Notes: a model not told the origin generated them from the sequence alone. A stretch of DNA of 64,000 nucleotides from Acidobacteriota bacterium (GCA_040005235.1 JBDTZG010000025.1:1-64000), one strand, 5' to 3'; numbered from the stretch's first letter, positions 13,548 to 60,034 are shown. Made by a program: numbers and translations.

Positions 13548-13750
13548 TCTCCTTGCTGGGCCAGAAGCGCGCCGTATCGGTGCGCCGGAGCTTACAGGAG
13601 CGGGTGGTCCACCACCTCCCCCAGGAACCGCGGTTTGTCCCCGTCTTCGTGATTCCGTCGTCGCGACGGCCAAAGCCGGGCAGAAACAACGGCGGTGCCG
13701 ATTGCGTAACAGCGATCCAGAGCCGCTCGTCCGGCCGAGGAGGATTTCTG

Positions 13751-18319: not shown

Positions 18320-18363
18320 ACGATCCGGCGTGCCTCTCGGGAGCGCACGCCGGAGACTCGACT

Positions 18364-20133
18364 TTAGACGAAGCCTTGCATCTTGACGTATAGGTCCACC
18401 CGCTTCTGACGAAGCTTGCCGGGCTGATATTTCACCAACCATTCCTCCGGCTTCTCTTTGAGGAAGAGGTTGCCGTCATCCGAGGGGTGGCCCCCATTCG
18501 TGGTCGCTTCGACCACGGAGCGGAAATAGTAATGGTTGAAGATCCGGTTGAACTCGGTGAAATAGATGTCGGCCACCCGAAGATCGCCGCGGATGACGAG
18601 CATGTTTTCGTCGTTCGATTTGGTCGAAGCGTCGCTGAAGTTCGCCGAGCCGGTGACCACGATCGGATCGGCGCCGAGCGGGTCTCGGAGGAGGAACTTC
18701 GAGTGGACGTAGCTTACGTGATGATTGAGCCCCAGCAGGCCGGCGTTCGTCTCTTTCGTCCACTGGTAGACGGGTTCGCGAAGAAACGAGCCCCACGCCT
18801 GGTAGGCGTTGTTCGAGGCGTTGATCGCGACGAACACTTCGGCGCTCTGGGGGTTCGGGACATCCTTTTTTTCGAGCAAGAGAAAGGTGATGGGGCTGGT
18901 GGCGTCGTGCGCCAGAAGTTTTTCCTTGAACTCCTTGTTGATCCCGAATGCGAGGGTGATGCAGGCAAGGTCCGCGGCCGTGTCGACCAGCGCGAAATAG
19001 GTATCGAGAATCGCGAGCTGGGAGCGGGGGCTGAACACGGGAGTCACCCCCGGTAGGACGCCTTCGACCGACGGCGGCACGAGACCGAGCGCCTCGACGG
19101 CGGCCAACAGCGCGGTGTTCTCGCGCCGCACGTCGGCGGTCGGCTCGCCTTTCTTTCCTCCCGGATCGGTGCTCAACAAGTGCCAATAGGCGTCGAATCT
19201 CACCGCGAGGTCGGGGTTGCGCACCCAATGCCCGACGTTGGTCTGGCCGTGGATGCCGCCGAGCGACAGGTTCGTCGATCCGGTCCAAACTTCGGTGGGC
19301 TTCCGCGTCTTGCCTTTTTCCAGCACCATGAACTTGTTGTGCTGAATATTGGACGCCCTTGCTTCGCGCCAGACGATGCGGTCTTCGGGAATCTTCGTCG
19401 CCGCGACCATCTTCTTGTTGTCCTCCCGCGGGAAGCTCGGGCTGTCGGCGGTTGCGTTGACCTTTCCGTCGAGAATCAGCCGCACGTCGACCCCGCGGTC
19501 GATCGCCTCCTTGAGCGCCAGGGCCACCGGCTCGTAGCGGAATTCGTAGAAGCAGCCGAGCAGCCCGTCGCCCTTTTTCGCCTGGTGGATGAACTTGAGG
19601 ATCGCGTCGTCGAGATCGCGGCTCAGCCAGTCGAGTGCCTCCTGGTCCTTCGGAGGAAGGAGCTGGTCGGGCGGCAGGTTCTGGAATTTCCGCGCGTACG
19701 CCTGGCTGCTCGCCACACCCCGGTTGAAGAAGACGTCGTGCTCCAGCTTGCCGAAAAGGGGCTCGGTCTTGACGTGGATCGGGATCGGCTTGGCGCTCCG
19801 GTCGAGGTTCTTGGGCTGGCCGCGCAGAGGGTAGAAGAAATATTCGTACCGCCGGCCGGGCTTGGCGGTGAAGTCGTCCCAGACTAGGCTTTGCACGGGA
19901 TGCTCGAAGGTGCTCACTTGGGTTTCTTCGTCCGGATGGGGGATGACCGAGGGGAACACCTTGAAGCCGGGCATGAAGTAGCGCTGTTTTTCTTTCGGGT
20001 CCAGGCGCTCGACCGCGAAACCCAGAAGACCTTTCCGTGCCGCCTCGCTCGCCTGGATCGCAAACGAGATCGTGTTGATCCCCGAGACCGCGAACACCTG
20101 AAACCCGCCATGCTTGGCCGATTTGAATCGCAC
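18364..20133 (-). CDS. Phospholipase D superfamily protein (two HKD motifs)
   Basis: HNKFMVLE...WTGSTN and HSKFLLRD...TGSANFS...NDEN; no signal peptide. Confidence 0.88.
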   Translation of the reverse strand: MRFKSAKHGGFQVFAVSGINTISFAIQASEAARKGLLGFAVERLDPKEKQRYFMPGFKVFPSVIPHPDEETQVSTFEHPVQSLVWDDFTAKPGRRYEYFFYPLRGQPKNLDRSAKPIPIHVKTEPLFGKLEHDVFFNRGVASSQAYARKFQNLPPDQLLPPKDQEALDWLSRDLDDAILKFIHQAKKGDGLLGCFYEFRYEPVALALKEAIDRGVDVRLILDGKVNATADSPSFPREDNKKMVAATKIPEDRIVWREARASNIQHNKFMVLEKGKTRKPTEVWTGSTNLSLGGIHGQTNVGHWVRNPDLAVRFDAYWHLLSTDPGGKKGEPTADVRRENTALLAAVEALGLVPPSVEGVLPGVTPVFSPRSQLAILDTYFALVDTAADLACITLAFGINKEFKEKLLAHDATSPITFLLLEKKDVPNPQSAEVFVAINASNNAYQAWGSFLREPVYQWTKETNAGLLGLNHHVSYVHSKFLLRDPLGADPIVVTGSANFSDASTKSNDENMLVIRGDLRVADIYFTEFNRIFNHYYFRSVVEATTNGGHPSDDGNLFLKEKPEEWLVKYQPGKLRQKRVDLYVKMQGFV

Positions 20134-26974: not shown

Positions 26975-27354
26975 CGTGTATCCCCTTCGAGTCGGTCCAG
27001 CAACTCCCGAATTTCGGCCAGCTCCTCCGCCGACGACGGCCGAGAAGAAAGCGCTCTCAAGACGAGCCGGCTGGCCGAGCCGGCGAACGCGCGATCGAGC
27101 AGATCCCCCACCAGTTGGCTCTGCGTCTGCTCTTCCTTGAGCCGCGGGGTGTAGAGGTGCGCCCGCTGCGCTTCGTCGCGGGTCACCAACCCCTTGTCGG
27201 TCATGATCTGCAGCTGCTTGAGCGTCGTGGTGTAGCCGGTGGGCGACAGCGAAGAAAGCTCGTCGTTCACCTCTTTGACCGTGCTCGCGCCGCGGCGCCA
27301 GAGCACTCGCAGGATCGCCAGCTCGGCATCGGTAGGACGGGGGATCTCGGCCAT
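26971..27354 (-). CDS. BlaI/MecI/CopY family repressor
   Basis: PTDAELAILRVLW...TVKEV...YTTTLKQLQIMTDKGLV...FAGSASRLV. Confidence 0.95.
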   Translation of the reverse strand: MAEIPRPTDAELAILRVLWRRGASTVKEVNDELSSLSPTGYTTTLKQLQIMTDKGLVTRDEAQRAHLYTPRLKEEQTQSQLVGDLLDRAFAGSASRLVLRALSSRPSSAEELAEIRELLDRLEGDTR

Positions 27355-27360
27355 GGAGAG

Positions 27361-27403
27361 ACGATATACGACGATCTTCGTACTGTCAACGAAGAGTTTC
27401 GTA
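27361..27403 (-). promoter_or_regulatory. Sigma70-type promoter overlapped by two palindromic putative BlaI operators
   Basis: TTGACA-N17-TATCGT on the minus strand; palindromes TACGACGATCTTCGTA (27367-27382) and AACGAAGAGTTTCGTA (27388-27403). Confidence 0.75.
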
Positions 27404-27438
27404 CTTCGCCGGACCGCGGGCGTTCTATACTCCCGTCC

Positions 27439-28446
27439 ATGTCCATCACACTCGGAATCTTCTTCGGCTTCTTTGCCTGGTTTGTCGTCCGTTACCTGCT
27501 GGCGGGGCTGTTCACCGTGGGGCAGAACGAGCGGGCGGTCAAGACCGTTCTCGGGCGCGCGCAGCGTTTGCCCGGACAGAGCACGTTGCAGGACCCGATC
27601 GCGCAGTCGCTGCGGCCGGACGAGCGGGAGCGGTACAACTATCCGCAGTTGCGGGTGATTCCGCCGGGCGGGCCGTATTTCCGCTGGCCGTGGGAGCGGG
27701 TGCATAAGGTGTCGATTGCCACCAGCACGCTCAACATGGCGTTCGACCCGGAAAATCCGAGCGCGAATGCGGGCGGCAAGACCCTGGAGGCGGTTACCAA
27801 GGACCAGCTCAACACGGGGCTTACGGGGCAGATCCGCTACCGGGTTTCGGAGCGAAACATGTATGCCTATTTCTTTGGGGTGAAGAATCCGATCGCCCAC
27901 ATCATGGGCTACTTCGTTTCGATCCTGCGCGAGCGGATCGCGAACTTCGAAGCGCCGCATCCCGCGCCGTTGGCTCCGGGAAGCTTGGCGCCGGAGAGCC
28001 AGCCGCCCGATTCGACCGAGGTCTCCGGGATCTCGATCAACGACTTGCGGAAAAACCTGCGCGATCTGAACGACCACATGGACCGCGAGTCGCAGTCCTC
28101 GGCGGCGCGCTACGGCATCACGCTCGACGCCTCGTTGATCACCGAGATCGATCCGCCGGCCGAGGTCGAATCGGCGCTCGCGGCGATCAACACCGCGCAC
28201 AACCACGTTTCGTCCGACATCAGCCTGGCGCACGCGGCGGCCGATCAGAAGATCGTCCAGTCCAAGCGGGCGGTCGAGATCGAGACGCTCAAAGCGCAGG
28301 GAGAGGTCGAGCCGCTCGCGCGTTTGGCCGAACAGCTGAACGACTTGAAGAGGCAGGGGCCGCACGCGCTCTCCGCCTATCTGCGCAACGTGCGCCTCGG
28401 CCTGTTCGGCAAGGCGCAGGACGCGTTCGTCGAGGTGAAGCGATGA
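27439..28446 (+). CDS. SPFH/band 7 domain membrane protein 1
   Basis: N-terminal TM, FTVGQNERAV, GGPYFRWPWERV, AVTKD, C-terminal Ala/Glu-rich helix. Confidence 0.85.
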   Translation: MSITLGIFFGFFAWFVVRYLLAGLFTVGQNERAVKTVLGRAQRLPGQSTLQDPIAQSLRPDERERYNYPQLRVIPPGGPYFRWPWERVHKVSIATSTLNMAFDPENPSANAGGKTLEAVTKDQLNTGLTGQIRYRVSERNMYAYFFGVKNPIAHIMGYFVSILRERIANFEAPHPAPLAPGSLAPESQPPDSTEVSGISINDLRKNLRDLNDHMDRESQSSAARYGITLDASLITEIDPPAEVESALAAINTAHNHVSSDISLAHAAADQKIVQSKRAVEIETLKAQGEVEPLARLAEQLNDLKRQGPHALSAYLRNVRLGLFGKAQDAFVEVKR

Positions 28447-29336
28447 ACTTCCTGCTAGCCGCGTTCATCACCTTCCTGGTCATGCTGTTCCTGGTGCCCG
28501 CCTTCTTGTTCTTGGTGCGCATTCTCGGGCTCTACGCCATCGTCTACGAGCGCACCTGCCGGGTCTACGTGCTGTTCGGCAAGGTGATCGGTATCCTCGA
28601 CGAACCGGGGCTGCACATCCTGCTCTTCAAGCTCGGACCGTCCGCCTTCCTGGTCAACTGGATGGGCCAGTGCCACGTGCTCGACATGCGGCTCGACCAG
28701 GACTATCTGCGGAGCCAGCCGGTGAACTCCGAAGAAGGTGCGCCGATGGGCATCGGCGTCTGGTACGAGATGTTCATCAGCGACCCGGTCGCCTACCTGT
28801 TCAAGAACACCGACCCGCGCGGTTCGCTCCGCGCCAACGTCAGCAACGCGACCGTTCGCTGCCTTTCCAACATGAAGCTCGCCGACATGCTGGAGACTCG
28901 CCATCAGATGAGCGCCACGGTGCGCTCGGAGGTCTCGGAAAAATCGCACGAGTGGGGATACAAGCTCGGCTCGATCTACATCCGCAAAGTGCATTTCCGC
29001 GACGGCGGCATGATCCGCCAGATCGAGGAGAAGGTGGTAAACCGCCTGCGCCAGGTCACTTCTGCGATCAAGCAGGACGGCGCGAATCAGGTGAGCATCA
29101 TCACCAGCACCGCAGAGCGCCAGGCGGCGATCGAATTCGCCAAAGCGAGCGCGATGCGGCCGCAGATCGTCGGCGCGGCGTTGAATTCGATCTCTGAGGA
29201 CCCTGAGATCGAAGCCGCGCTGTTCGAGATCCTGGAGACGCAGCGGATCGTCGAAGGAGCCGCAAGGGTGACACTGCTGCCCCAGGCGGGCGAGCTGCTC
29301 GCGAACCTGTTGGCCGGGGGCGCGAAGCGCGGGTGA
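28443..29336 (+). CDS. SPFH/band 7 domain membrane protein 2
   Basis: N-terminal TM, LFGKV..LDEPGLH, WGYKL; ATGA coupling to the upstream gene. Confidence 0.85.
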   Translation: MNFLLAAFITFLVMLFLVPAFLFLVRILGLYAIVYERTCRVYVLFGKVIGILDEPGLHILLFKLGPSAFLVNWMGQCHVLDMRLDQDYLRSQPVNSEEGAPMGIGVWYEMFISDPVAYLFKNTDPRGSLRANVSNATVRCLSNMKLADMLETRHQMSATVRSEVSEKSHEWGYKLGSIYIRKVHFRDGGMIRQIEEKVVNRLRQVTSAIKQDGANQVSIITSTAERQAAIEFAKASAMRPQIVGAALNSISEDPEIEAALFEILETQRIVEGAARVTLLPQAGELLANLLAGGAKRG

Positions 29337-32065
29337 CGAGAAGAGGTCCCACCCCGCCTGCCGGCGAGCGCCCGTGGTCTGTTTGCGACCACGCGCTGCT
29401 GGCTCTCTTCGCCGTCGCCCTCCCGGCCGCGGCGGAGTCGTCCTTTTCTGTCGAGCCGGTGGCCGACCTCGGTCTTTCGCCGACGGTCGCGCTTCATACT
29501 GTGCCGCACGGCGAGGTACGGATCGGCGACCGGGTCGTCTTCTTTGCCTCCGACGAGGTCTCCAGCACTGAGCTTTGGGCGACGGACGGAACGCAGGCCG
29601 GTACACGGCGGGTGTTGGATGTCTCGCCCTCAGGAGGAAATCCGGCGCTCGGCGGCGGGTTCGGCCTGGTGGCGGCGCGCGACCGGGCCTTCTTTGAGAC
29701 CGCCGATCCCCTGGCCGGAGGTCGCCTCTGGGTGACCGACGGCTCGCGAGAGGGGACAGTGCCGTTCTTTAACCTCGGTCTTTACGACGAGCTGGCCGGA
29801 CCTCCACCGGCGATCCAGACCGCGGTGCTCGGCCGCGATCTCCTTTTCGTGCGCGCAGGAGAAGGGGACGCCCCGGAACTCTGGCGTAGCAACGGCACGG
29901 CGGCCGGCACCCGGCGCCTGGCGTCACTCCCTGCGGATTCCTATTTCGGCGTCAAAGGGGTCGGGATGATCCCGGCGGTCGGCCGCGTCTATCTCAGTTT
30001 CCTCTCCACGGACCGCCGAGGGCAAGAGTTTTGGGTGAGCGACGGAACGGAGACGGGAACACTCCGGCTCGCCCGGTTTCCCTTCGCTGCCAACCCGAGC
30101 CCGCCGCCGCCTCTGGCCGTCGGGTCGCGGCTCTTTTTCGTCGGGTTCGACGCGGACCATGGTTTCGAGATGTGGACCTCGGATGGCACGTCGGAGGGGA
30201 CGAGGATTCTCCGTGACGTGGTCCCCGGGCGAAGGGGGCCGTTTTTCGGGTTGTTTCTGGCGGGACGACGAAATTTCTATTTCACCTTGAGCACCCAGGT
30301 CGCAAGGGAGCTCTGGCAGAGCGACGGCACCGAAGCGGGCACCCTCAAGCTGCCGACGTTCGACGGCTCCTTCGTGCAGCCGGAGGGCGAGGTGGAGGGC
30401 TCCCTCCTGTTCTTCGAGGCCGGGGGGTTCTGGCGCACGCGAAAGGGGGCGGCACCGAGGCCCCTGGCGCCGAAACTCGACGGATGCGGGGGGGAAGCGG
30501 CGGCGGTTCCCTTCGGCGGCAAGCTCTACCTCTTCGCCAAAGACGGTCAGAACAGCTGCCGGCTCTGGCGGACCGACGGAACCCCCGAGGGAACCCAGCT
30601 CGCGCCCGATCTCGGCGGGGACTTCAGGCTGCGCCCGCTCGGGAGCCGGCTGCTGCTCTTCTCCTCCGGCATCCCAGAGATAAGGGTCGTTGAAAACGAT
30701 CGCGTTTCGGCGCTCCGCCGCCCGCGGGCCGAGCTTCGATCGGGCGCTCCGTCAAACCTGGTGCCGTGGGCGGACGGTCTTGCCTTTGCGGCGACCGGCA
30801 TGGCGCGGCGCGCCATCTTCCGGTCGGACGGCACGGCGGCGGGGACTCTGCCGATCGCCTCGGGTCCGTTGTGGTCGCCGTACTACACCGAGCTGCCGCG
30901 CGACCTCATCCCGCTCGGCGAGAACCTCGTCTACTGGTCGCCGGGCGGAATCGAGTCCTCGAACGCCTCTCTCCCCGGGGCGAACCCGATCCATCTCGGC
31001 GAGCATCCCGTGGGCAGGTCGCTCGAAGGCCAAGCGCTTTTTTCTTATAGCGGGCGAGCCTTCTGGCTCACCCTTTCGAGCGGCGGCCACGATGTCGACC
31101 TGCATGGGACCGATGGCACGACGGCGGGGACGGGCCGGGTCGGTCGCTTATTTCCCGCGCCGGTCTCTCCGTTCGGCGGCGTGACCTACGTGCCCGACTT
31201 CTTCGTCGTGCGGACGGAAGGCTATCTCGCGTTCTTCTTTCCCTTCGATTCGAACGAAATCTGGACCACCGATGGCACGGCGGCTGGAACGCGCCGTCTC
31301 TTCGACCTGGATGAGGCCGACGACGAAACCGGCACGCGGTTTCTTCTCGAAGGCGTCCCTTTCGACGACGGGATGTTATTTACGACCTGGGGGCCGCAGT
31401 CGGGAATTCAATTCTGGCGAACCGACGATTCTCCGGCGGGCGTGAGCGCGATCGATCGGGTGACCACCATTTCCCCGCCGCATCGGCTGACCCGGGTGGG
31501 CTCCCTTGTCTATTTCACGGCCGACGGCCCCGGAGGGACGGAGCTCTGGGTGACCGACGGCACCCTCTTCGCGGTGCATCGGGTTCGGGACATCGTGCCC
31601 GGGCCGCAAGGCTCGTTTCCTCGGGATCTCACCGCCGTGGGGGACCGGTTGTTTTTTACCGCCGACGACGCAACGTCCGGTCGCGAGATCTGGTCGAGCG
31701 ATGGCACGACCGCGGGGACGGCGCGTGTGGCGGATCTCGCTCCCGGCCCCGAGGGTTCTTTTCCGCAGCGCCTCGCCGCGGTCTCGCTCGACGGTGCGCC
31801 TCCCTTTCTCGCCTTCGCGGCAAACGACGGCGTTCACGGCCTGGAGCCCTGGTTGGGGGAAGCGGACGCAACGGGCGTCCGGCTCCTGGCGGACGTGGCC
31901 CCCGGTCGCACCTCGTCGAGCCCGGGGGAATTCCTTGCCGTAGGCTCGCGGATCTTCTTCGCCGCGACGACCCGAAGCGCCGGGCGCGAGCTGTGGGTCG
32001 CAACGCTCGAAAAGGCTGGAGCTCCTCTGCTTTCCTGTGCCTACGAGAGCCTCCGGAGGCCTTGA
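29333..32065 (+). CDS. ELWxxDGT repeat protein
   Basis: Many ELWxxDGT repeats over 910 aa; exact start uncertain. Confidence 0.88.
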   Translation: MTRRGPTPPAGERPWSVCDHALLALFAVALPAAAESSFSVEPVADLGLSPTVALHTVPHGEVRIGDRVVFFASDEVSSTELWATDGTQAGTRRVLDVSPSGGNPALGGGFGLVAARDRAFFETADPLAGGRLWVTDGSREGTVPFFNLGLYDELAGPPPAIQTAVLGRDLLFVRAGEGDAPELWRSNGTAAGTRRLASLPADSYFGVKGVGMIPAVGRVYLSFLSTDRRGQEFWVSDGTETGTLRLARFPFAANPSPPPPLAVGSRLFFVGFDADHGFEMWTSDGTSEGTRILRDVVPGRRGPFFGLFLAGRRNFYFTLSTQVARELWQSDGTEAGTLKLPTFDGSFVQPEGEVEGSLLFFEAGGFWRTRKGAAPRPLAPKLDGCGGEAAAVPFGGKLYLFAKDGQNSCRLWRTDGTPEGTQLAPDLGGDFRLRPLGSRLLLFSSGIPEIRVVENDRVSALRRPRAELRSGAPSNLVPWADGLAFAATGMARRAIFRSDGTAAGTLPIASGPLWSPYYTELPRDLIPLGENLVYWSPGGIESSNASLPGANPIHLGEHPVGRSLEGQALFSYSGRAFWLTLSSGGHDVDLHGTDGTTAGTGRVGRLFPAPVSPFGGVTYVPDFFVVRTEGYLAFFFPFDSNEIWTTDGTAAGTRRLFDLDEADDETGTRFLLEGVPFDDGMLFTTWGPQSGIQFWRTDDSPAGVSAIDRVTTISPPHRLTRVGSLVYFTADGPGGTELWVTDGTLFAVHRVRDIVPGPQGSFPRDLTAVGDRLFFTADDATSGREIWSSDGTTAGTARVADLAPGPEGSFPQRLAAVSLDGAPPFLAFAANDGVHGLEPWLGEADATGVRLLADVAPGRTSSSPGEFLAVGSRIFFAATTRSAGRELWVATLEKAGAPLLSCAYESLRRP

Positions 32066-33195: not shown

Positions 33196-33351
33196 GGGAC
33201 CTCTTTGAAGGCAGCGCTCTCTCTGCTGCGATGGTATCGCAAGCGAGGTGGTATTCTGTCCGGAACTTTTCCACCGGTGGCGTTCTTCAATTCGTCGTCC
33301 TCCTCTGCGCGCCAAGGCGCGACGCGAGGCGGAGATTTTGGGAGGTCCGCG

Positions 33352-36300
33352 ATGCCGTCTCCTCGAGCCCTTGGGTCGTTGTTCTTACCGCTCTGGATCG
33401 CCTTCGCGGTGCCGGCGTTCGGGCCGGTATCGAAGGTTGGCGCGCAGCCGGCGGATTCCGGGGTGGACGAGTGCTCGGCGGCGCTGCCGCTGCCCAGCGC
33501 CTTTCCGTTCAACAAGTCGGAGTACGAGCGGATCTTTGGCCGCTTCTTGCGGGCGGAGTGCTACAAGAAGCTCGGCTGGCCGCATGACAAGCAGCTCCGT
33601 CCCACCGGTCCTACCGTAGCCGCTTTGGTCCCCGGGACCGATCCGCATATCCCCAAGTGGGTCCGGACGACGCTCGGCACCCACCAAACGGTCGTCATCT
33701 ACTACTCGCCCGACGTCTATCGTTGGATGTGCGAGAGGGACGCGGCGCACGAGAAGCAGTTCGTCGCCGAGTGCAAAAAGAGCTGCCCCACCTGCCGGCT
33801 CGACGGCAAAGAGCCTGCGCCGATTTCCGACGGCTCGATGATCTTGAAGCTGATGTACGGTGCCACCAACGCCACAGACCTGGAGAACCCGTCGATCCCC
33901 ACGGGCGAGGCGAACATTTTCGCCACCATGGTCAAGGATGCGAAGGCGTCCAAAGACGGCTGGTTCTGGGGCAACTGGGAACCGCCCATGCAGGCGACGG
34001 AACTTTCGCAGCTCGACTGGCCGCCGCCGGTGAACCTGCCCTACCCGTGGATGGGATTTGGCTTCTACTGCGTGAACTGCCACGCCTCGGCCAAATCCGA
34101 GTCCACGTTTTCGGACCTGAACAACGTGCTCGGCAACCCCGACACCTTCACCAAGTTTTACTTCCAGGACCAGCCGCCGATCGCGATGGCCGCGGGCCAC
34201 TCTCCGACAGAGAGTTTGGAGACGATCTCGGAGCACGAGAAGTTCGAGGTGGGGCAGGATCTCAAAGCCGTGGCCGGCTTGGTGCCGTGGAATAAGGTCC
34301 CCTGGCCAAACCCGAAGGTCAACCGGGTGAGCCAGCCCGGCACCGACTACTCCGCGGCGTTCCTCCAGACGTTCCAGGCGAAGCGGATCGTGCCGCCCGA
34401 TTCGAAAACAATCACCGACCTTTACATGCCGCCGGAAGTCTACGACCACCGGCTCTCCGGACCGGAGGGGCCGCCGCCGTTCTTGACCTCCGACCAGTGC
34501 GTCGGCTGCCACGCCGCGGGCTCGACCGGCATCCATTTCGACATGACGGTGCAGAAGCCCGATCAGCCGGCGTTCACCAACCTGGTGAACATCGCCGAGT
34601 ACGGCGAATGGCGCGGCTCGCCGATGGGGCTCGCCGGGCGCGATCCGATCTTCTTCTCGCAGCTCGAAACCGAGCAGGAGGCGCACCCTTCGCTCGCCAA
34701 ACTCGCGCCCGATATCTGCCTGCATTGCCACGGCGTGATGGGGCAGCGGCAGTTCTGCCTCGACCAGTTTCCGGACGACCCGAAGAAGGCGAACGAGGTC
34801 TGCAACAACAGCAACCTTCTGGGGCTGAACGAAAACTCGCAGCCGATCGTGCCGCGCCGTCTGTTCACCCGCGACCAGGTGAACGCGATTCCGTTCCGGG
34901 CGACGACCGACGATGAGAAAAAGAACGCGAAATTCGGCGGTCTGGCGCGCGACGGTGTTTCGTGCACCACCTGCCACCACATCGAGATCGACGAGAAGAC
35001 CCCCATCGGCCACACCTTCACGGGAGATTTTCGGACCGGCGCCAACGACGCCCTTCACGGGCCGTTCGACAAGCCGCAGCAGGTGCCGATGGATCACTCG
35101 TTGGGCGCCAAGCCGATCGAGTATCCGCTGGTGCGCTCATCGAAGGTCTGCGGCAGCTGCCACAGCGTCGTGCTGCCGGTATTCGACGGAGACAAGCCGT
35201 GGATTCGGCCGGGGACGAAGAAGCCCGAGATCATCATCGAGCAGGCGACTTACCCGGAGTGGGTATTCAGCGACTTCCGCGACGGCGGGCCGACCCCGAG
35301 GTCGTGCCAGAACTGCCACATGGCCTCGTCGTACCCGGGCCTCGGTTCGCCGCTAACGACCAAGATCGCCTCGATCCAAGAGGCGAGCAATATGCCGCAG
35401 ACAGAGGAACGGCTGCCGCTGTCGGACATCGACCTTCAGCCGCGGACTCCCTATGGGCGCCACACACTCGTGGGCTTGAACGTCTTCTTCAACCTGTTCG
35501 CCCAGCAGTTCCCGGATATCCTTGGCATCCGAATTCAAGACCCAATGCTAGGCGGCACGGGAATCGCCCCGCTCACGACCACCTACAACTCGATGATCCA
35601 ACAGGCGGACACGGGTACCGCGACCGCGTCGGTGACCGGAGTGAGAACCACGGCGGATTCGCTCGTCGCCGAAGTAAGGGTCGAGAACATGGCGGGGCAC
35701 AAATTCCCCTCGGGCGTCGGCTTCCGGCGCGCGTTCCTGACCTTCGAGGTGCTGGACGCTGCGGGCAAAGACCTCTGGGTCTCCGGCCGCACCACGGACA
35801 CGGGGGTTCTGGTTGGGCCGAACGGTGCGCCGATCGACGGCGAGCTCATGTGGGGCAACGACTGCACGCCGATCCCGGGGGACCAGCAAAAGATCCAGCC
35901 GCATTACCAGACCATCACGCGCCAGGATCAGGTCCAGATCTACCAAGAGCTAGTGCGCGACCCGCGCGGCCGGCTGACCACCAGTTTCCTCTCGCTCGCA
36001 AACGAATCGAAAGACAACCGGCTCCTGCCGCGCGGCTGGACGCCGAGCCTGGAGCTGGGCGAAAAAACCGGCCTGGGTAGCCCGAAGCTCTCCGTCGCGG
36101 ATTTGATCCACCGCATCCTGCCCGATCTGCCGGACGGCAAGGGCGGAACGGTGAACGACCCCTGGTACAAGCCGGTCTCCGAAGGAGGCAGAGGCGGGGG
36201 AGGGGACGAGCTGACCTACGCCGTGCCGCTTAAAGGATTGAAAGGCACGCCGGCCTCCGTGCGGGTGACCCTCTACTACCAGTCGATCCCGCCGTTCTAT

Positions 36301-36504
36301 CTCCAGGATCGGTTCTGTTCAACCCCCAACCGGCCGGACACCTCGCGCCTCTTCTTCCTCGCCGGCCACACCGACTTCACCGGCACCCGGGCGGAGGGGT
36401 GGAAGTTGTCGGTGGTGTCGTCTGGGAAGGTGGCTGTGGAGGCGAAAGTGGCGGGGGTGGAACGTCCGAAGGATGCGGTGCGGGCTGGGGGCGGGAAGAG
36501 GTAA
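33352..36504 (+). CDS. Multiheme c-type cytochrome (6 CxxCH) with an N-terminal cytochrome P460-like domain
   Basis: GGAGG RBS, signal peptide; CVNCH, CVGCH, CLHCH, CTTCH, CGSCH, CQNCH; DGSMILKLMY...MVKD....DGWFWG before the first heme. Confidence 0.88.
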   Translation: MPSPRALGSLFLPLWIAFAVPAFGPVSKVGAQPADSGVDECSAALPLPSAFPFNKSEYERIFGRFLRAECYKKLGWPHDKQLRPTGPTVAALVPGTDPHIPKWVRTTLGTHQTVVIYYSPDVYRWMCERDAAHEKQFVAECKKSCPTCRLDGKEPAPISDGSMILKLMYGATNATDLENPSIPTGEANIFATMVKDAKASKDGWFWGNWEPPMQATELSQLDWPPPVNLPYPWMGFGFYCVNCHASAKSESTFSDLNNVLGNPDTFTKFYFQDQPPIAMAAGHSPTESLETISEHEKFEVGQDLKAVAGLVPWNKVPWPNPKVNRVSQPGTDYSAAFLQTFQAKRIVPPDSKTITDLYMPPEVYDHRLSGPEGPPPFLTSDQCVGCHAAGSTGIHFDMTVQKPDQPAFTNLVNIAEYGEWRGSPMGLAGRDPIFFSQLETEQEAHPSLAKLAPDICLHCHGVMGQRQFCLDQFPDDPKKANEVCNNSNLLGLNENSQPIVPRRLFTRDQVNAIPFRATTDDEKKNAKFGGLARDGVSCTTCHHIEIDEKTPIGHTFTGDFRTGANDALHGPFDKPQQVPMDHSLGAKPIEYPLVRSSKVCGSCHSVVLPVFDGDKPWIRPGTKKPEIIIEQATYPEWVFSDFRDGGPTPRSCQNCHMASSYPGLGSPLTTKIASIQEASNMPQTEERLPLSDIDLQPRTPYGRHTLVGLNVFFNLFAQQFPDILGIRIQDPMLGGTGIAPLTTTYNSMIQQADTGTATASVTGVRTTADSLVAEVRVENMAGHKFPSGVGFRRAFLTFEVLDAAGKDLWVSGRTTDTGVLVGPNGAPIDGELMWGNDCTPIPGDQQKIQPHYQTITRQDQVQIYQELVRDPRGRLTTSFLSLANESKDNRLLPRGWTPSLELGEKTGLGSPKLSVADLIHRILPDLPDGKGGTVNDPWYKPVSEGGRGGGGDELTYAVPLKGLKGTPASVRVTLYYQSIPPFYLQDRFCSTPNRPDTSRLFFLAGHTDFTGTRAEGWKLSVVSSGKVAVEAKVAGVERPKDAVRAGGGKR

Positions 36505-36557: not shown

Positions 36558-36800
36558 ATGAAAGCGGTCACCTTGCGCGCTCATTTCGACGGAGAGAGCC
36601 TCCGTTTGGACGAACCTTGCGAGCTGGACCGGGGCGCTCCTTTGACGGTCACCATCCGGCCCCAAAGCGAAGAGGCGGAGGAACGAGAGTCGTGGTTCCT
36701 TTTGGCGGCTTCCTCCCTCGCGAGAGCCTATGGGGAAGACGAGCCCGACTATTCCTTGGACCTGATCAAAGAGCCCAACCCTGACTATGAGGGAAGGTAA
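36558..36800 (+). CDS. Putative antitoxin (AF2212/DUF104-like N-terminus)
   Basis: LRAHFDGESLRLDEP...LTVTI, acidic tail LARAYGEDEPDY; overlaps the toxin start. Confidence 0.75.
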   Translation: MKAVTLRAHFDGESLRLDEPCELDRGAPLTVTIRPQSEEAEERESWFLLAASSLARAYGEDEPDYSLDLIKEPNPDYEGR

Positions 36801-37137
36801 CGTCGCGATCGCGGCCCTCCCTCAGGTCGATGGCGAGAAGAAAAACCGCCCTATCCTGCTCCTGCGGGAGATGCCTCGCCATCAGGACTTCCTCGTTTGC
36901 GGGATCAGCTCTCGGCTTCTAAGACGCATTCCCGGGTTCGACGAGCTGATCGTGCCTGCCGATGCTGATTTCCGCTCGAGCGGTCTCCTCTCCCCCTCGC
37001 TCTTCCGGCTCGATTTTCTCAATGTCCTTCATCGGACGAAGATCATCGGCTCCATCGGATCGGTCTCCACCGAACGCCACCGCCGGATCTTGAGCGCCCT
37101 GAGCAGCTATTTGCTCGGTGACCTTTCGATTCCTTAG
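36787..37137 (+). CDS. PemK/MazF family toxin
   Basis: EGNVAIAALPQVDGEKKNRPILLL...VCGISS...SGLLSPS.FR...IGSIG. Confidence 0.85.
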   Translation: MREGNVAIAALPQVDGEKKNRPILLLREMPRHQDFLVCGISSRLLRRIPGFDELIVPADADFRSSGLLSPSLFRLDFLNVLHRTKIIGSIGSVSTERHRRILSALSSYLLGDLSIP

Positions 37138-37147: not shown

Positions 37148-37216
37148 CCTTTGGACGCAGGGTTCCTTCCCCGAGGGAAGGGGAGGGTTGGAGCCGGGAG
37201 AAGGACAGGATGGGGG
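37148..37216. repeat. REP-like element, left (inverted partner of 37917-37950)
   Basis: CCTTTGGACGCAGGGTTCCTTCCCCGAGGGAAGGGG...AGGATGGGGG. Confidence 0.7.
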
Positions 37217-37274
37217 TCGCCGTGATCCCGCGCAAACCGCCCCGCCGCGCTACAATCGACGCTCAATCAAGCCC

Positions 37275-37985
37275 ATGGCGTCAAAGAAACCCCCGCTGAC
37301 CGGTTCGAAGCATCCACTACCGTTTGGGGCGCTCGGTCCCGAGCAGTTCGAGCGCCTCTGCCTCTGGCTTGTCAGGCGAGAGAAGTTCGAGCGAGTCGAA
37401 CACCTTGGCGAAGCGGGGAGTGAAGGCGGTCGCGATGTCGTGGGTTGGAAGGCGGAGCGCCGCTGGGTCTTCCAATGCAAGCGGGTTCGGGTGTTTTCCC
37501 TGTCGCACGCCAAAAAGGAGATCACAAAGCTCCGCGCACTGCCGCGAGATCAACAGCCCGATAATCTGGTGTTCGTGGTATCGCGAGCAGTTAGCGCCGA
37601 AACGCGCGAGGCCATCCGGACGCTGTGGGGCGACGAGGCGACCTGCCACTTCTGGAGCGGTAACGAGCTGGACGAGAGAGTGAAGTGCCATCCGGCTTTG
37701 GTCGCCGAGTTCTTCGAGCTTCCGCCGGACACCTCGCGGTTGGGCCGCCTGATCAGCCTTCCGTACGCTTCCCTCGGTGAGCTTTTCCAAGGCCGAGAAG
37801 AGGTGCTCGCCTCCCTCCACCAGAAGCTCACGGATGGAAAAAGCGGGAAGGCGACCGCCATCGCAGGAAAAGCCGTCCACGGTCTCGGTGGAGTGGGGAA
37901 GACTCGCCTCGCGATCCCCCTCCCCGGGGGAAGGAACCCTTCGCCAAAGGATTTCTTGGACTCGACCGGCTTCGAACACCGGTGA
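37275..37985 (+). pseudogene. Mrr-like restriction endonuclease domain plus NB-ARC/STAND NTPase truncated after Walker A
   Basis: FERLC...GSEGGRDV...FQCKR (PD-(D/E)xK-like), then LPY....FQGRE..L..L and VHGLGGVGKTRLA; family similarity lost at ~37913. Confidence 0.8.
37917..37950. repeat. REP-like element, right
   Basis: CCCCTCCCCGGGGGAAGGAACCCTTCGCCAAAGG; its reverse complement aligns with 37148-37183. Confidence 0.75.
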
Positions 37986-54841: not shown

Positions 54842-55849
54842 GTGAAGAGCGAGCTGGAGCTGCGGCATCTGCGCGTCTTTGCGGCTGTGGTGGAGGCCGG
54901 AACCCACGCCCGCGCGGCCCGAGCGCTCGGTCTGTCGCAATCGACGGTCTCCGAGACCCTCAGTTCTCTGGAGCGCACTCTGGGTGTCGAGCTGTTCCGC
55001 AAGTCGGGGAAGGGCGCATCGGCACTCTCGCCCTCCGGCGAAGTCCTGCTCGGGTACGCTCGCCGGATGTCCGCGCTGAGCAGCGAGCTGGTCGGGGCGA
55101 TCGCCGACGCGTCGCCCGGCGTCAAGGCAACGCTGGGGATTTCGGCCGTCGAGTCGATCGGCGCCTACGTGCTTCCCAACCGGCTGGCTGCCCTTCGCGC
55201 GCGCTGGCCTTCGGTGCGGGTGGAGGTGCAGACCGGCAGTTGCGGCGAGATCCGCGAGCGGGTTGCAGCGGGCGAGTGCGACCTCGGCCTGGTGCTCGAA
55301 CCGGAGAACGGTCCTGAGCCCGGCGCGTTCCTCGCGAAGGCACGCCTGCTGATTCTCGGTGCCCCTGGTCATCCGTTGGTGCGCGGCACGGCTGGGGTGG
55401 GCGGGGCGACCGGAGTGGGCGCGGTGGCCGCCGTGGACCTGCTTCGGCGCTGCGACTTCTACATGTGCGATGCGGGGGGTAACTACCATCAGACGCTGCG
55501 CCAGCACTTCGAGGCGGCCGGTGTACCAGCTCCCCGGATGCAGGCGATGGGCACCATCGAGGGAGTGAAGCGCGGAATTCTGACCGGCGGATCGGCGCTC
55601 GGCCTGTTGCCCGAGCACGCCGTCGAGTCGGAGCTGAGAGACAACGTGCTCGCCGAGGTGCGCGTGAATCCGGCATTGCCCTCCGTGGTGCTGCGAGCCG
55701 TGCTGGCGCCCGGCGCGCGCTCGCCGGTGGCGGACGACCTGATCGAGGCTTTGCGCGGCTCGCCGCAGAGCGGTCTGCTGCTCACGGCCGCCGCGGCCGC
55801 CGCGACGATCGAGGGCGAAACGGCCCGCACCCGGCCGCGCCCGCGATAA
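54842..55849 (+). CDS. LysR family transcriptional regulator
   Basis: LRHLRVF...AARALGLSQSTVS...LERTLGVELF; divergent from the hydrolase. Confidence 0.92.
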   Translation: MKSELELRHLRVFAAVVEAGTHARAARALGLSQSTVSETLSSLERTLGVELFRKSGKGASALSPSGEVLLGYARRMSALSSELVGAIADASPGVKATLGISAVESIGAYVLPNRLAALRARWPSVRVEVQTGSCGEIRERVAAGECDLGLVLEPENGPEPGAFLAKARLLILGAPGHPLVRGTAGVGGATGVGAVAAVDLLRRCDFYMCDAGGNYHQTLRQHFEAAGVPAPRMQAMGTIEGVKRGILTGGSALGLLPEHAVESELRDNVLAEVRVNPALPSVVLRAVLAPGARSPVADDLIEALRGSPQSGLLLTAAAAAATIEGETARTRPRPR

Positions 55850-55959
55850 CTTGCGGCCGGCTCCGCCGATTTGCCACAATGCGGTTTCGAGCGCGAGATG
55901 TTTCTCCCGCGCCTCCAGCTCTCCCGGGTCTTCAATCCTCCGGAAAACGAGGGAACCCC

Positions 55960-57078
55960 ATGTCCGAAAAGATCCAGTTCTTCCTGCCCGGCCCGACCTA
56001 CGTCCTCGACGCGGTCCGGCAGGCGATGACCCAGCCGATGGTCGGCCATCGTTCCGCGGGCTTCAAGACGTTCTACGTCAATCTTTCGGCGAAGCTGCCG
56101 AAGTTGCTCCGCACCGCGGGCGACGTGATGGTCGCCTCCGGCAGCTCGACGCTGGTGATGGAGGCGGCGGTCGTCTCGTGCGTTGCCACCTCGGTGCTCA
56201 ACCTGACCTGCGGCGCGTTTTCCGAGCGCTGGCACAAAATCAGTAAATCGGTCGGCAAAGACGCCGACAAGCTCGCGTTCCCCTGGGGCCAGCCGGTCGA
56301 TCCGGATCTCGTCAAGAAGGCGCTCGAACGGAAGCGCTACGACGCGATCACGGTCGTCCACAACGAGACCTCGACCGGCGTGATGAGCCCGATCGCCGAG
56401 ATCGCCAAGGTCGTTCGCGAGTCGAGCGACGCCCTGGTGATCGTAGATGCGGTTTCCTCGCTGGGCGGCGCGCCAGTCGAAACCGACGCCTGGGGGATCG
56501 ATATCTCGCTGGCCGGAACCCAGAAGGCGATCGCGGTGCCGCCCGGTCTCACCGTCTTTACGCTCTCCGACCGCGCCGCCGAACAGGCGGCCAAAGTGCC
56601 GTTCCGCGGGTTCTACACCGACCTGCTCAACTATCGCGACAAGCACCGCGAGGGGGGCTTCATCACCACCCCCGCGATCCCGTTGCTCTATGCCCTCGAC
56701 CGCCAGATGGACGTGATTCTCGAAGAGGGGATGGAGGCGCGCTGGGAGCGCCACGCGCAGCTGCAAAAGCAGACCGCCGATTGGGCGGCGGCGCGCGGCA
56801 TCGCCTACGCCTCGGCCGAGGGGTGCCGCTCGCACACCGTGAGCTGCTTTCTTGCGCCCGATGGGCTCGATCCGCAGGCGCTGGTCAAAGCGCTCACTGC
56901 GCGGGGAACGACGATCGGCGGCGGCTACGGCGATTGGAAGCCGACGACTTTCCGAATCGGCCACATGGGCGAAGTGCGCGAGACCGATCTGACCGCACTT
57001 CTGGCTCAAATCGACGAAGAGATGGCACGGCTCATGGCTCCGCTGGCTCCAATGACTCCCGCCGCGGTCGGAGCTTAA
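55960..57078 (+). CDS. Class V aminotransferase (serine-pyruvate / phosphoserine aminotransferase-like)
   Basis: PGPT, HNETSTG, VDAVSS, GTQKA (PLP Lys), FRIGHMG. Confidence 0.92.
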   Translation: MSEKIQFFLPGPTYVLDAVRQAMTQPMVGHRSAGFKTFYVNLSAKLPKLLRTAGDVMVASGSSTLVMEAAVVSCVATSVLNLTCGAFSERWHKISKSVGKDADKLAFPWGQPVDPDLVKKALERKRYDAITVVHNETSTGVMSPIAEIAKVVRESSDALVIVDAVSSLGGAPVETDAWGIDISLAGTQKAIAVPPGLTVFTLSDRAAEQAAKVPFRGFYTDLLNYRDKHREGGFITTPAIPLLYALDRQMDVILEEGMEARWERHAQLQKQTADWAAARGIAYASAEGCRSHTVSCFLAPDGLDPQALVKALTARGTTIGGGYGDWKPTTFRIGHMGEVRETDLTALLAQIDEEMARLMAPLAPMTPAAVGA

Positions 57079-57085
57079 AGTCCAG

Positions 57086-59122
57086 ATGCCGAAGATCCTG
57101 ATTGCCGACCAGCTCGATCCGTACGGTCTCGACCTCCTCGCCAAGGCGGGCGCGGAGATCCGCGTGGTCCGAGACGACGAGCGCGGCCGGCTGGCCGAGC
57201 TGATCGCCGACGTCGACGCGCTGGTCGTCCGGAGCGCCACCAAGGTCACCGCGGATCTCCTGCGCGCGGGTAAGAAACTCAAGGTGGTCGGCCGGGCGGG
57301 CGTGGGCGTCGACAACGTGGACGTTCCCGCGGCGACCGAGCTGGGCATCCAGGTGGTGAACGCACCGACCGCGAACCTCACCTCGGCGACCGAGCACAGC
57401 CTGGCGCTGCTGCTCGCGCTCGCCCGGCAGATTCCGGCGGCGGACGCCTCGATGAAGCGGGGGGAGTGGGACCGGAAGACCTTCCTCGGTGTCGAGCTGG
57501 AAGGGAAGACCTTAGGCGTCGTCGGCTTCGGCCGGATCGGCCAGAAAGTGGCGGAGCGGGCCAAGGCGTTCGGAATGAAGATCATCGCCTCCGATCCGTT
57601 CCCCAACGCGGACGCCGCCCGGCGGTTGGGGGTCGAGCTGGTGTCGATGGACGAGCTGATTGCCCGAGCAGACGCCTTGACGCTCCACACCCCGTTCACC
57701 GCGGAAACCAGGAACGTCATCTCGCGCGAGCGGATCTTCGCCATGAAGCCGGGGGCGCTGTTGGTCAACTGCGCTCGCGGCGGCCTGATCGACGAGGAGG
57801 CGCTGCTCGAAGCGCTCGACGCCGGGCGGATTTGCGGCGCGGCATTCGACGTCTACATCGAAGAGCCGCCCAAAGATCGGCGGCTGGCTCACCATCCCAA
57901 AGTGGTCGCCACCCCGCACATCGGCGCCCAGACCAGCGAAGCGCAAAAGCGGATCTCGGAGGAGACCGCCCAAAGGCTGCTCGCGGTGCTCGGAATGTCA
58001 ATGCCCGCGGCGGCCGTGGCCGCGGGGGTTCCCTCGGACGGTGCCAAGAGAGTCCGGGTCGGAGTGATCTTCGGCGGCCGGAGCGTCGAACATCAGGTCT
58101 CGCTCCGCTCCGCGCGCACGGTGTTGCAGGGCCTCGAAGCAGCCGGGTACGAACCGGTGCCGCTGGCGGTCGCCGAGGACGGCTGCTGGCTGTCGCCGGA
58201 GGAATCGGCGGCGATCCTCAAGAGCGACGCGGCGGCCGTGCCAAAGGTCGGCAAACCGGTCGCATCCACCTTGGGCGCTCTCACCGGCGCGAGGGTCGAG
58301 GCGCTCTTTCCGATCGTCCACGGCACCTGGGGAGAAGACGGCACGCTCCAGGGCCTGTGCGAGATGCTCGACCTGCCCTACGTCGGTCCGGGGGTCGCGA
58401 CCAGCGCGCTCGCGATGGACAAGCTGCTCGCCAAGCGCCAACTGCGCGCGGCGGGCGTGCCGGTGGTGGACGACGAGCCGGTCACGCGCGCCGGATTCGA
58501 AAGCGACCCCGGCGATATCCTCCGCCGCGCCGCGCGCTTTGCCTATCCGCTGTTCGTCAAGCCGAGCGTCGGCGGATCGAGCGTCGGCGTGGCGAAAGTC
58601 GACCGGCCCGAGGATCTGGCCGAAGCCGTGGCGTTCGCGCTGCGGTTCGACGAAAGCGTCCTGGTCGAGCGCGGGGTCGCCGGGCGCGAGCTGGAATGCG
58701 CGGTCTTGGGGGGAGCCGGTCGGCTCGAAGCCTCGGCGGTGGGGGAGATCGTCCCCGGCAACGCGTTTTACGACTACGCGGACAAGTACCTGCAAGACAC
58801 CGCGCGCCTGATCGCGCCGGCCGAGATTCCGAAGGAGATCGAAGACCGCCTCCGCGCGCTGGCGGTCGCCGCCTTCGGAGCGCTCGGCGGCTCGGGGATG
58901 GCGCGGGTCGATTTCTTCCTCGAAGGCGAGAATCTCTACGTCAACGAGATCAACACCCTTCCCGGCTTCACCAGCATCTCGATGTACCCCCGCCTCTGGG
59001 GACTCTCGGGCCTCACGTTGCCGCAGCTCGTCGGCCGCCTGGTGGAGATCTCGATCGAACGCCATGCCGAGCGCCACCGGCTGGACGCCGGAATCAAGCA
59101 GTTCCTCTCCGAACTGGCTTGA
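57086..59122 (+). CDS. Fusion: SerA-like D-2-hydroxyacid dehydrogenase plus D-alanine-D-alanine ligase
   Basis: aa 1-303: VRSATKV, GRAGVGVDNVD, GFGRIG, NCARG, DVY.EEP, TPHIGAQT. aa ~320-678: GGRSVEH, HGTWGEDG, VKP...GSS.G, FYDYADKY, RVDF, NEINTLPG. No stop between them. Confidence 0.92.
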   Translation: MPKILIADQLDPYGLDLLAKAGAEIRVVRDDERGRLAELIADVDALVVRSATKVTADLLRAGKKLKVVGRAGVGVDNVDVPAATELGIQVVNAPTANLTSATEHSLALLLALARQIPAADASMKRGEWDRKTFLGVELEGKTLGVVGFGRIGQKVAERAKAFGMKIIASDPFPNADAARRLGVELVSMDELIARADALTLHTPFTAETRNVISRERIFAMKPGALLVNCARGGLIDEEALLEALDAGRICGAAFDVYIEEPPKDRRLAHHPKVVATPHIGAQTSEAQKRISEETAQRLLAVLGMSMPAAAVAAGVPSDGAKRVRVGVIFGGRSVEHQVSLRSARTVLQGLEAAGYEPVPLAVAEDGCWLSPEESAAILKSDAAAVPKVGKPVASTLGALTGARVEALFPIVHGTWGEDGTLQGLCEMLDLPYVGPGVATSALAMDKLLAKRQLRAAGVPVVDDEPVTRAGFESDPGDILRRAARFAYPLFVKPSVGGSSVGVAKVDRPEDLAEAVAFALRFDESVLVERGVAGRELECAVLGGAGRLEASAVGEIVPGNAFYDYADKYLQDTARLIAPAEIPKEIEDRLRALAVAAFGALGGSGMARVDFFLEGENLYVNEINTLPGFTSISMYPRLWGLSGLTLPQLVGRLVEISIERHAERHRLDAGIKQFLSELA

Positions 59123-59140: not shown

Positions 59141-60034
59141 GTGCATTTCGCCCATTTCTCCGACCTGGTCCTCGCCCGCGCCCGCCAAGCCTCCCCGCTC
59201 GTCCTCGGGTTAGATCCCGATTTCGCCTTGATGCCGCCGGAGCTCCGGCCGGCCGAGGGCGCGGGCGGCGAGGAGATCGTGCGCCGCCTCGTCGCGTTTA
59301 CCGAGCAGGTTCTCGAAGCGGCGGCGCCGTTTTGCTGCGCGGCCAAGCCCCAGAGCGCATTTTTTGAGCAGCACGGGAGCGCAGGCGTCGCGGCGCTCGC
59401 CCGGTGCCTGGCGAAGATCCGCGCCGCGGGGCTGCCGATTCTGCTCGACGTCAAACGGGGCGACATCGGCTCGACCGCCACGGCGTACGCCCGCGCGTAT
59501 CTTGGCGAAACGGATCTTGCCGCCGATGCGATCACGGTGAATCCGTTTCTGGGTGGCGACTCCCTCGCGCCGTTTTTCACCGCGTCGAAAAGCTCCGGCA
59601 AGGGAGTCTTCGTGCTGGTGAAGACCTCGAACCCCGGCTCGCGCGACCTGATGGATCTGGAGATCGCCGAAGGCACCGTCTCCGCGCGCCTCGCGCGACA
59701 GGTGGAGGAGGAGGCGGCCAAGTCGATAGGCGAAAGCGGCTACGGCCTGGTGGGCGCCGTCGTCGGCTCGACTTATCCCGCCCAGGCGGCGGCGCTGCGC
59801 CAATTGATGCCCCACGCGCCGATTTTGGTACCCGGTCTGGGGGCGCAGGGCGGTTCGCTCGATGCGGTTCGCGCGGTTGCGGACGCCAAAGGCGGGGGAG
59901 TGCTGGTGCCCGTCTCGCGCGGACTCACCTACCCGGGCGTCGAAGAGATCGCGGCGGCGGGCGGGTACGTTGCCGCAGTGCGGGCGAACGCCGAGCGCTA
60001 TGCTGCCGAGTTGAACGGGGCGCTCGCTGCTTAG
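59141..60034 (+). CDS. pyrF: Orotidine-5'-phosphate decarboxylase (type 2)
   Basis: LGLDP, KPQSAFFE, LDVKRGDIGST, KTSNPGS, LVPGLGAQG, SRG. Confidence 0.96.
   Translation: MHFAHFSDLVLARARQASPLVLGLDPDFALMPPELRPAEGAGGEEIVRRLVAFTEQVLEAAAPFCCAAKPQSAFFEQHGSAGVAALARCLAKIRAAGLPILLDVKRGDIGSTATAYARAYLGETDLAADAITVNPFLGGDSLAPFFTASKSSGKGVFVLVKTSNPGSRDLMDLEIAEGTVSARLARQVEEEAAKSIGESGYGLVGAVVGSTYPAQAAALRQLMPHAPILVPGLGAQGGSLDAVRAVADAKGGGVLVPVSRGLTYPGVEEIAAAGGYVAAVRANAERYAAELNGALAA

Follow-up and report, generated by a model that had tools for sequence, protein, structure and literature searches.

A D-alanine--D-alanine ligase joined in frame to a serine-pathway dehydrogenase in an Acidobacteriota bacterium: a probable housekeeping fusion born by deletion

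What can be expected of a single protein that has a D-2-hydroxyacid dehydrogenase in its first half and a complete D-alanine--D-alanine ligase (Ddl) in its second? The question is raised by an open reading frame (ORF) on the plus strand, 57086-59122, in a 64,000-nucleotide stretch of DNA from an Acidobacteriota bacterium (GCA_040005235.1 JBDTZG010000025.1:1-64000), the whole of which we here call the window. An earlier note on this DNA had suggested that the fusion could work along the lines of VanH and VanA, and lead to an unusual end of the peptidoglycan precursor, with the caveat that a neutral housekeeping fusion was plausible. The caveat was right, given the origin of the gene by deletion and the ordinary SerA and Ddl identity of its halves. 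It is likely that the protein is a bifunctional housekeeping enzyme, which came from one in-frame deletion in a conserved aminotransferase-serA-ddl-pyrF operon, and that each half carries on with its ordinary job independently of the other.

The reading frame is open over all its 678 codons and consists of a dehydrogenase unit, a short linker and a complete Ddl. The first part, 57086-58018 (+), is the catalytic unit of SerA, with its substrate-binding and NAD-binding domains, and comprises residues 1-311, the last of them being ...MPAAAV, where the linker to ASB used to begin, as judged from Pfam, TIGR01327 and DNA homology to the serA of a related locus (L006). The Pfam domains 2-Hacid_dh and 2-Hacid_dh_C cover residues 4-308 (E-values 1.6e-64 and 2.2e-33; PF00389 115 bits, PF02826 217 bits). 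The linker, 58019-58057 (+), is 39 nt (AAGVPSDGAKRV). The ligase, 58058-59122 (+), runs from ...RVGVIFGG to the stop codon and is DdlA-like, of the ATP-grasp type, according to Pfam, NF002528 and TIGR01205; both ligase domains are present, Dala_Dala_lig_N and Dala_Dala_lig_C, at residues 324-654 (E-values 1.3e-27 and 8.4e-63; PF01820 97 bits, PF07478 212 bits). Beyond the two enzymes Pfam found nothing substantial in the ORF, and no match to ASB (PF19304) or ACT (PF01842). With the ASB/ACT part of P0008 as probe, there was no tblastn match in any frame of the window or of two other fused loci, L001 and L002, at E<=1e-10. The anatomy is thereby as the earlier note described it, one 678-aa ORF in which a dehydrogenase without ASB/ACT is joined to a full Ddl, and the strings that it quoted, the linker GMSMPAAAVAAGVPSD and the omega loop FYDYADKY, are both read in the translation. 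The same is true of the aminotransferase gene 7 bp upstream, as the TAA of that gene ends at 57078 and the ATG of the fusion is at 57086, a gap of 7 nt. An AlphaFold2 model of the whole fused protein has a mean pLDDT of 74.8, with the Ddl half above 90. The dehydrogenase half is poorly modelled because only 6 alignment rows cover it, and the pLDDT of the linker, 37-38, is weakly informative given the poor dehydrogenase half in the same model.

The architecture is real, rare and apparently undescribed. The earlier note had proposed a search for its occurrence and spread, and in a word-seeded search of 5.8 billion protein clusters, in which 8000 candidates were scored and the best 120 of 3422 hits were examined, both domain sets were found in five other clusters, P0003-P0007 (96, 89, 89, 88 and 83% identical), all of one clade. 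All other hits among these best 120 were either full-length phosphoglycerate dehydrogenase (PGDH), about 525 aa long and containing ASB and ACT, or stand-alone Ddl of about 375 aa. An assembly artefact as the source of the fusion is ruled out, because the five further clusters come from separate assemblies and have the same architecture with differing linkers, all in frame. Two of the further fused proteins were also read at the DNA level, in L001 and L002. A phmmer search with P0001 among 1.84 billion representatives gave no sequence that matches both halves in the best 150, down to 288 bits; this library hides fused forms that are clustered under non-fused representatives, those of the present clade included, and the result limits other occurrences, rather than excluding them. 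The earlier note knew of no described case, and likewise no published description of a SerA/2-Hacid_dh-Ddl fusion was found in our literature searches, nor was anything found in a search on the peptidoglycan of Thermoanaerobaculia.

How the two enzymes came to be one can be read from the relatives. A scan of one genome per species gave 78 loci, which were compared together with the window, using the aminotransferase, the dehydrogenase half, the ASB/ACT part of P0008 and the Ddl half as tblastn probes. Separate genes in relatives, which the earlier note had itself named as evidence against its proposal, were found at 16 loci of Thermoanaerobaculia and allies (L003-L012, L014-L017, L019 and L043), where an aminotransferase gene, a serA with ASB and ACT and then a ddl follow each other on one strand. 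The same order without ASB/ACT occurs, among the 78 loci and the window, only in the window, L001 and L002. In the split relatives the ddl gene starts with the codons of MARVG, 17-25 nt past the serA stop. The sister gene in L006 codes for a 525-aa type I enzyme, and in a global alignment the DNA of the window is colinear with this locus up to 58018, the codons of ...MPAAAV, and again from 58058, the codons of RVG.... Between these two points there are 671 nt in L006 and 39 nt in the window. Lost in the deletion were about 670 nt, which coded for ASB and ACT and included the stop codon of serA, the spacer and the start of ddl. The window, L001 and L006 also have their flanks in common (M13 peptidase, LysR, pyrF, MobA-like and TonB receptor genes), which shows that they are the same locus.

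The six fused linkers vary in both sequence and length, all are in frame, and none contains a stop or a frameshift. In all six proteins, a basic residue or two and then one more residue stand directly before RVG. In a careful maximum-likelihood tree of the concatenated dehydrogenase and Ddl sequences (20 rows, of which 6 are fused and 14 split), all fused sequences fall into a single clade (98/98) with the split L006 as sister (96/95), nested in the split forms, and 1 change of state is enough. Our reading is that one deletion took place in the common ancestor of the six fused sequences, a small group among bacteria of soil and water. As for the linker itself, it bears by eye a faint likeness to the first ASB-linker codons of L006.

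Loss of the regulatory part of SerA is seen elsewhere in the class as well. At 12 other Thermoanaerobaculia loci (L018, L021, L026-L028, L032-L034, L036, L037, L045 and L048) a stand-alone SerA of 301-324 aa without ASB/ACT lies beside a class V aminotransferase gene, with serA at about 10001-10975 in most of them, and at none of these 12 loci is there a ddl within the stretch. Most of the short proteins end just after ...PAAAVN, which is the domain boundary of the fusion junction. The best dehydrogenase tree has 4 changes for the short forms, and its well-supported branches make at least 2 of them necessary. Judging from this tree, the regulatory tail of SerA has been lost at least twice in the class besides the fusion and is dispensable there. 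By domain content the short forms would be type III enzymes in the classification of PMC6300728; that paper describes type III PGDH as lacking ACT, not regulated by serine, and dimeric. The domain content of the fused SerA half is like that of type III PGDH too, for example that of Entamoeba histolytica treated in the same source, and no feedback by L-serine and a dimer of catalytic units would be expected. Unlike an old type III lineage, it is recently derived from type I by deletion and is joined to a Ddl. The short stand-alone SerA of the 12 loci is the closer analogue.

The event behind the fusion may then be pictured as a deletion like those that yielded the short stand-alone SerA, which went beyond the serA stop and the spacer, reached the opening codons of ddl and came out in frame. 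Two catalytic modules, each working on its own, would share one polypeptide, whose expression would still be from the original operon. From what is known of the family, the SerA half would behave as a type III enzyme, with no L-serine feedback and no tetramer mediated by ASB/ACT.

A very different possibility is a module like VanH/VanA: hydroxypyruvate or pyruvate, as the 2-keto acid, would be reduced by the dehydrogenase, and the ligase would add the D-2-hydroxy acid so formed to D-Ala, giving a depsipeptide or some other unusual wall terminus. In its favour, a single chain holds both a D-2-hydroxyacid dehydrogenase and a ligase of the Ddl type, and the family of the upstream aminotransferase has serine-pyruvate and serine-glyoxylate aminotransferases among its members. 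The dehydrogenase half, however, shares 91% identity with the catalytic unit in the full-length SerA of the sister L006, as compared to 31% with VanH (over 271 residues, 131 bits). Among solved structures it is closest to human PHGDH and the SerA of M. tuberculosis (about 292 bits), it aligns with positions 1-313 of the 525 of the PGDH model TIGR01327, and the next-best model, glyoxylate reductase, reaches 253 against a cut-off of 455. By these comparisons the dehydrogenase half is identified as an orthologue of full-length type I SerA. It has the same substrate-binding and NAD-binding domains as the type I enzymes of M. tuberculosis (1YGY) and human, but it is without ASB/ACT, and its chain continues into another enzyme.

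The active site of the dehydrogenase half points in the same direction. In an alignment of 56 rows R49, G147/G149/G152, D170, R231, E260 and H278 are invariant, S50 is nearly so, and R130 is found in ...GEWDRK.... The Arg/Glu/His triad (R231/E260/H278) is thereby intact, as the earlier note had stated, and the basic residues of the phosphoglycerate type, which it also mentioned, are kept, R49 without exception and S50 nearly so, with R130 present. A constant offset of five in the numbering, and not a structure, suggests that R231 and H278 correspond to R236 and H283 of human PHGDH, and R49/S50 and R130 to R54/S55 and R135'. In human PHGDH the R236 and H283 mutants are inactive, and Arg54/Ser55 and Arg135' bind the substrate, according to PMC8081924. 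That the residues matching human Arg54/Ser55/Arg135/Arg236/His283 are kept argues against a VanH-like role.

The ligase half gives no more support to such a module. It passes the cut-offs of the Ddl subfamily models NF002528 (382 vs 262) and TIGR01205 (316 vs 246), and stays below those of the equivalog-level Ddl models NF002525 (340 vs 457) and NF002526 (314 vs 449). Its closest solved relatives are DdlA structures (7U56, 3Q1K and 3R5F, 288-292 bits), with VanG at 198 and VanA at 183-191 bits. The active site was mapped by comparison with E. coli DdlB. In the 54-row Ddl alignment E335, S498/S499, K567, Y568, R607, D609, E621 and N623 are invariant. The omega loop FYDYADKY, which lines up with the FYDYEAKY of DdlB from E. 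coli, is of the Lys-Tyr type, and the earlier note was correct in seeing there the Tyr of ordinary dipeptide ligases; the loop of VanA, IFRIHQEVEPEKGSEN, is different and 4 residues longer. After the conserved Ser in ...TSIS-M comes Met here, where E. coli DdlB has Leu and VanA has Arg. An Arg at that position marks Ser/Lac ligases. Models of D-Ala-D-Lac ligases (NF000206, 226 vs 550; the VanA/B/D/I/O variants, 184-207 vs 650-750) and of D-Ala-D-Ser ligases (NF000207, 234 vs 520; VanG, 256 vs 495; VanC, 194 vs 650) give scores of about half of their cut-offs or less. The fused half is like a DdlA-type ligase in being full length and in having the active-site residues and the Lys-Tyr loop of E. 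coli DdlB, and unlike one in having no start codon of its own, being translated as the C-terminal part of a 678-aa chain.

The aminotransferase gene upstream does not set the fusion apart. Such a gene lies upstream of serA in 42 of the 45 ingroup rows, and the pairing is the norm in the class and not special to the fusion. NCBIfam models leave the protein below all cut-offs, with BhcA as the best (217 vs 650) and serC_3 at 82 vs 402, and the nearest solved structures are class V aminotransferases of the serine/alanine-glyoxylate type. There are archaea and cyanobacteria in which a class V aminotransferase acts as the phosphoserine aminotransferase. Because of such precedents, and of the constant pairing with serA, the protein probably has this role in the serine pathway. 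At three loci (L018, L026 and L052) the aminotransferase region, at about 8800-10000, is spread over two or three reading frames. These are probably indel errors of the assembly, not pseudogenes, and such errors may also explain the odd 301-aa SerA of L026.

The known VanH and VanA (Tn1546-type, E. faecium plasmid NZ_CP059742.1) share with the fusion that a dehydrogenase gene lies directly upstream of a gene for a ligase of the Ddl family. They are however separate proteins, with identities of 31% (VanH) and 35% (VanA), and the loop of VanA is different. Among the 41 ORFs of the window scanned with Pfam, there was no match to a VanX/VanY-type peptidase; no Mur ligase or Fts family was present among them either, which is consistent with the earlier remark that the locus lies outside any mur/fts cluster. 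The origin by deletion in a housekeeping operon also argues against a Van-like module. The likeness to VanH/VanA is, on these comparisons, one of gene order only, and a route to an unusual terminus such as D-Ala-D-glycerate is unsupported in view of the SerA orthology, the scores of the Ddl models, the DdlB-type loop and the split relatives. We consider it extremely improbable, and the locus gives no pointer to new peptidoglycan chemistry or to a resistance mechanism. A parallel in layout is the bifunctional MurC-Ddl (NF011171; Chlamydia), which also has Ddl at the C-terminus of the enzyme of a neighbouring gene. MurC belongs to the same pathway as Ddl, whereas the partner here belongs to serine biosynthesis, and the fused protein matches NF011171 only at model positions 450-798, the Ddl part (202 vs 1015), and falls outside that family.

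If the halves are ordinary SerA and Ddl, are both still needed? The ratio of non-synonymous to synonymous substitution rates (dN/dS) for dehydrogenase and Ddl is 0.078 and 0.085 between the window and L001, 0.18 and 0.12 between the window and L002, and 0.18 and 0.10 between L001 and L002. Split pairs among L003-L006 give 0.05-0.13 and 0.07-0.13, and with the distant L007 the values go up to 0.18 and 0.24. These ratios indicate purifying selection on both halves. It could still be argued that the dehydrogenase half is a decaying remnant, with a second full-length SerA doing the work and only the Ddl half needed. A second SerA paralogue with ASB and ACT, 61-67% identical to the fused dehydrogenase half, is present in each of the three nearest split genomes open to this check, at L042 (4557-6143), L044 (about 9989-11575) and L038 (8586-10172), which share metagenome-assembled genomes with the split loci L006, L005 and L007, respectively. 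It is preceded by a PALP-family gene in all three and followed by DUF3326 in L042 and L044, and the clusters closest to the L042 paralogue are P0273 (91%), P0274 (89%) and P0275 (83%). Neither the window nor the stretches of L001 and L002 include the locus of this paralogue, and tblastn found no second ddl or serA within the 64-kb window. A PALP gene of the window, at 5823-6905, was considered as the orthologue of the one beside the paralogue and rejected. The raised dehydrogenase dN/dS of the fused branches, given below, would also fit a remnant. On the other hand the dehydrogenase values, 0.08-0.25, are far under 1, the six fused sequences are free of stops and frameshifts, and the catalytic residues are invariant, which makes decay very unlikely.

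Several observations do weigh against the account of a deletion that left two housekeeping enzymes as they were. The score with TIGR01327, 420 bits, is under the cut-off of 454, which is expected because the ASB/ACT part is missing and only 313 of the 525 model positions exist. A quick tree of the dehydrogenase only (49 rows; L040, L046 and L052 were dropped as partial) does not place the long-branched L002 with the window and L001, giving 2 changes for the 3 fused rows, although its starred branches leave 1 change possible. Furthermore, the adjacency of serA and ddl is deeply conserved, down to 57% identity in L043, which the deletion does not explain, and the fusion has been kept through divergence to 83% identity, which would not be required of a pure neutral accident. 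In three-taxon tests that took L006 for the sister and, for the outgroup, L003, L004 or L005 (200 bootstraps each), the dehydrogenase dN/dS is 0.12-0.25 on the fused branch and 0.03-0.11 on the split sister, and dN is higher on the fused branch in 9 of 9 comparisons and in all 200 bootstraps of each. The aminotransferase has no such speed-up (0.07-0.12 on the fused branch vs 0.04-0.14), and Ddl is intermediate (0.08-0.19 vs 0.03-0.17). The faster dehydrogenase could reflect partial relaxation or adaptation to a new role, and a description as unchanged housekeeping may be too simple. A VanH-like role is one that a dehydrogenase evolving faster after the fusion could be thought to favour. Sites that set all fused sequences apart from all five close split ones amount to 6 out of 308 columns for the dehydrogenase, 2 out of 353 for Ddl and 1 out of 361 for the aminotransferase, and three of the six (288, 297 and 304) are in the last helix before the junction. 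This pattern fits a local adjustment to the lost ASB contact, or mild relaxation, and is unlike decay.

It is also conceivable that the fusion itself was selected, with the chemistry unchanged, either because the Ddl dimer replaces ASB/ACT as scaffold for the SerA dimer or because a 1:1 ratio of the two enzymes, which already shared their expression, becomes fixed. Human PHGDH cut to residues 1-307 has about 75% activity, and only its dimer is active, the regulatory domains stabilising the dimer by avidity, as given in PMC8081924. The rise of the dehydrogenase dN/dS on the fused branches, with low values again within the clade (0.078 between the window and L001), the concentration of fused-specific columns in the dehydrogenase with three of them in the last helix before the junction, and the retention of the fusion across a clade that reaches 83% identity, all agree with such a role. 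Against it, 12 related loci keep a short SerA with no partner domain, which means that no scaffold is needed for such an enzyme to persist. The linker is moreover short, variable and of low confidence in the model, with no sign of contact between the halves, and relaxed constraint explains the faster change equally well. An adaptive fusion in which the Ddl dimer acts as a scaffold for SerA, or, more broadly, an adjacency of serA and ddl that reflects a real and so far unrecognised link between serine and wall precursors, is something we regard as unlikely. The scaffold, if true, would mean that a serine enzyme insensitive to feedback is physically tied to the synthesis of D-Ala-D-Ala.

What the sequences show is the anatomy, a single origin, by deletion, and selection on both halves. 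The reading that we find likely, a housekeeping fusion by deletion, would have the N-terminal half work with the upstream aminotransferase in making serine, by oxidising 3-phosphoglycerate, and the C-terminal half make D-Ala-D-Ala for peptidoglycan, both activities being predicted from the family assignments and the regulation of SerA presumably lost, with no coupling between the halves. The protein should be annotated as a bifunctional SerA (catalytic unit)/Ddl, and not as VanH/VanA-like. The locus offers a clean and datable case of the birth of a multidomain enzyme, where the split sisters preserve the state before the event. It is also a natural experiment on the role of ASB/ACT in type I PGDH, and on whether an unrelated dimeric partner can substitute for them.

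The genes around the fusion are arranged with an M13 peptidase gene on the minus strand, then LysR, aminotransferase, fusion and pyrF on the plus strand, and a MobA-like transferase and a TonB-dependent receptor gene on the minus strand. The LysR-family regulator, 54842-55849 (+; Pfam HTH_1 and LysR_substrate), is directly upstream on the same strand, as it is also upstream in L001 and L006. The class V aminotransferase gene (+; Pfam Aminotran_5, 88.9 bits) has its longest ORF at 55879-57078, and its likely extent is 55960-57078. The ATG at 55960 is internal to the ORF (Met28), and appears to be a reasonable start because the alignments to more distant relatives begin near there, at query residues 23-31. 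The pyrF gene for orotidine monophosphate (OMP) decarboxylase, 59141-60034 (+; Pfam OMPdecase), begins 18 nt downstream of the fusion, follows ddl in L001-L007, and is probably in the same operon as the fusion. A scan for promoters and terminators between 54400 and 60800 found nothing exceeding chance; there were 4 terminator-like sites, as compared to 3.9 expected, and none of them is in the gaps between these genes.

Elsewhere in the window a few other features were noted. The G+C content is 62-71% overall, with a dip at 16001-20000 (0.615-0.618, as compared to 0.63-0.71 elsewhere). At 14675-18319 (+) there is a 1214-aa ORF with an ABC-2 type transporter membrane domain (residues 8-200) and a peptidase M1 domain (879-1076), preceded by an ABC ATPase ORF at 13529-14659. 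Three long plus-strand ORFs, at 8839-11757 (972 aa), 29333-32065 (910 aa) and 33205-36504 (1099 aa), are without a match in Pfam at E<=1e-5, and the 910-aa ORF is preceded by two SPFH/Band 7 genes at 26947-29336. A PemK/MazF-like toxin ORF at 36787-37137 (+) is followed by an ORF with an Mrr_cat restriction-endonuclease domain at 37188-37985 (+), and no antitoxin was recognised. Finally, a 900-aa ORF at 20263-22965 (+) carries a CBS domain (about residues 309-357) N-terminal to the head domain of a poly(A) polymerase or CCA-adding enzyme (residues 497-623).

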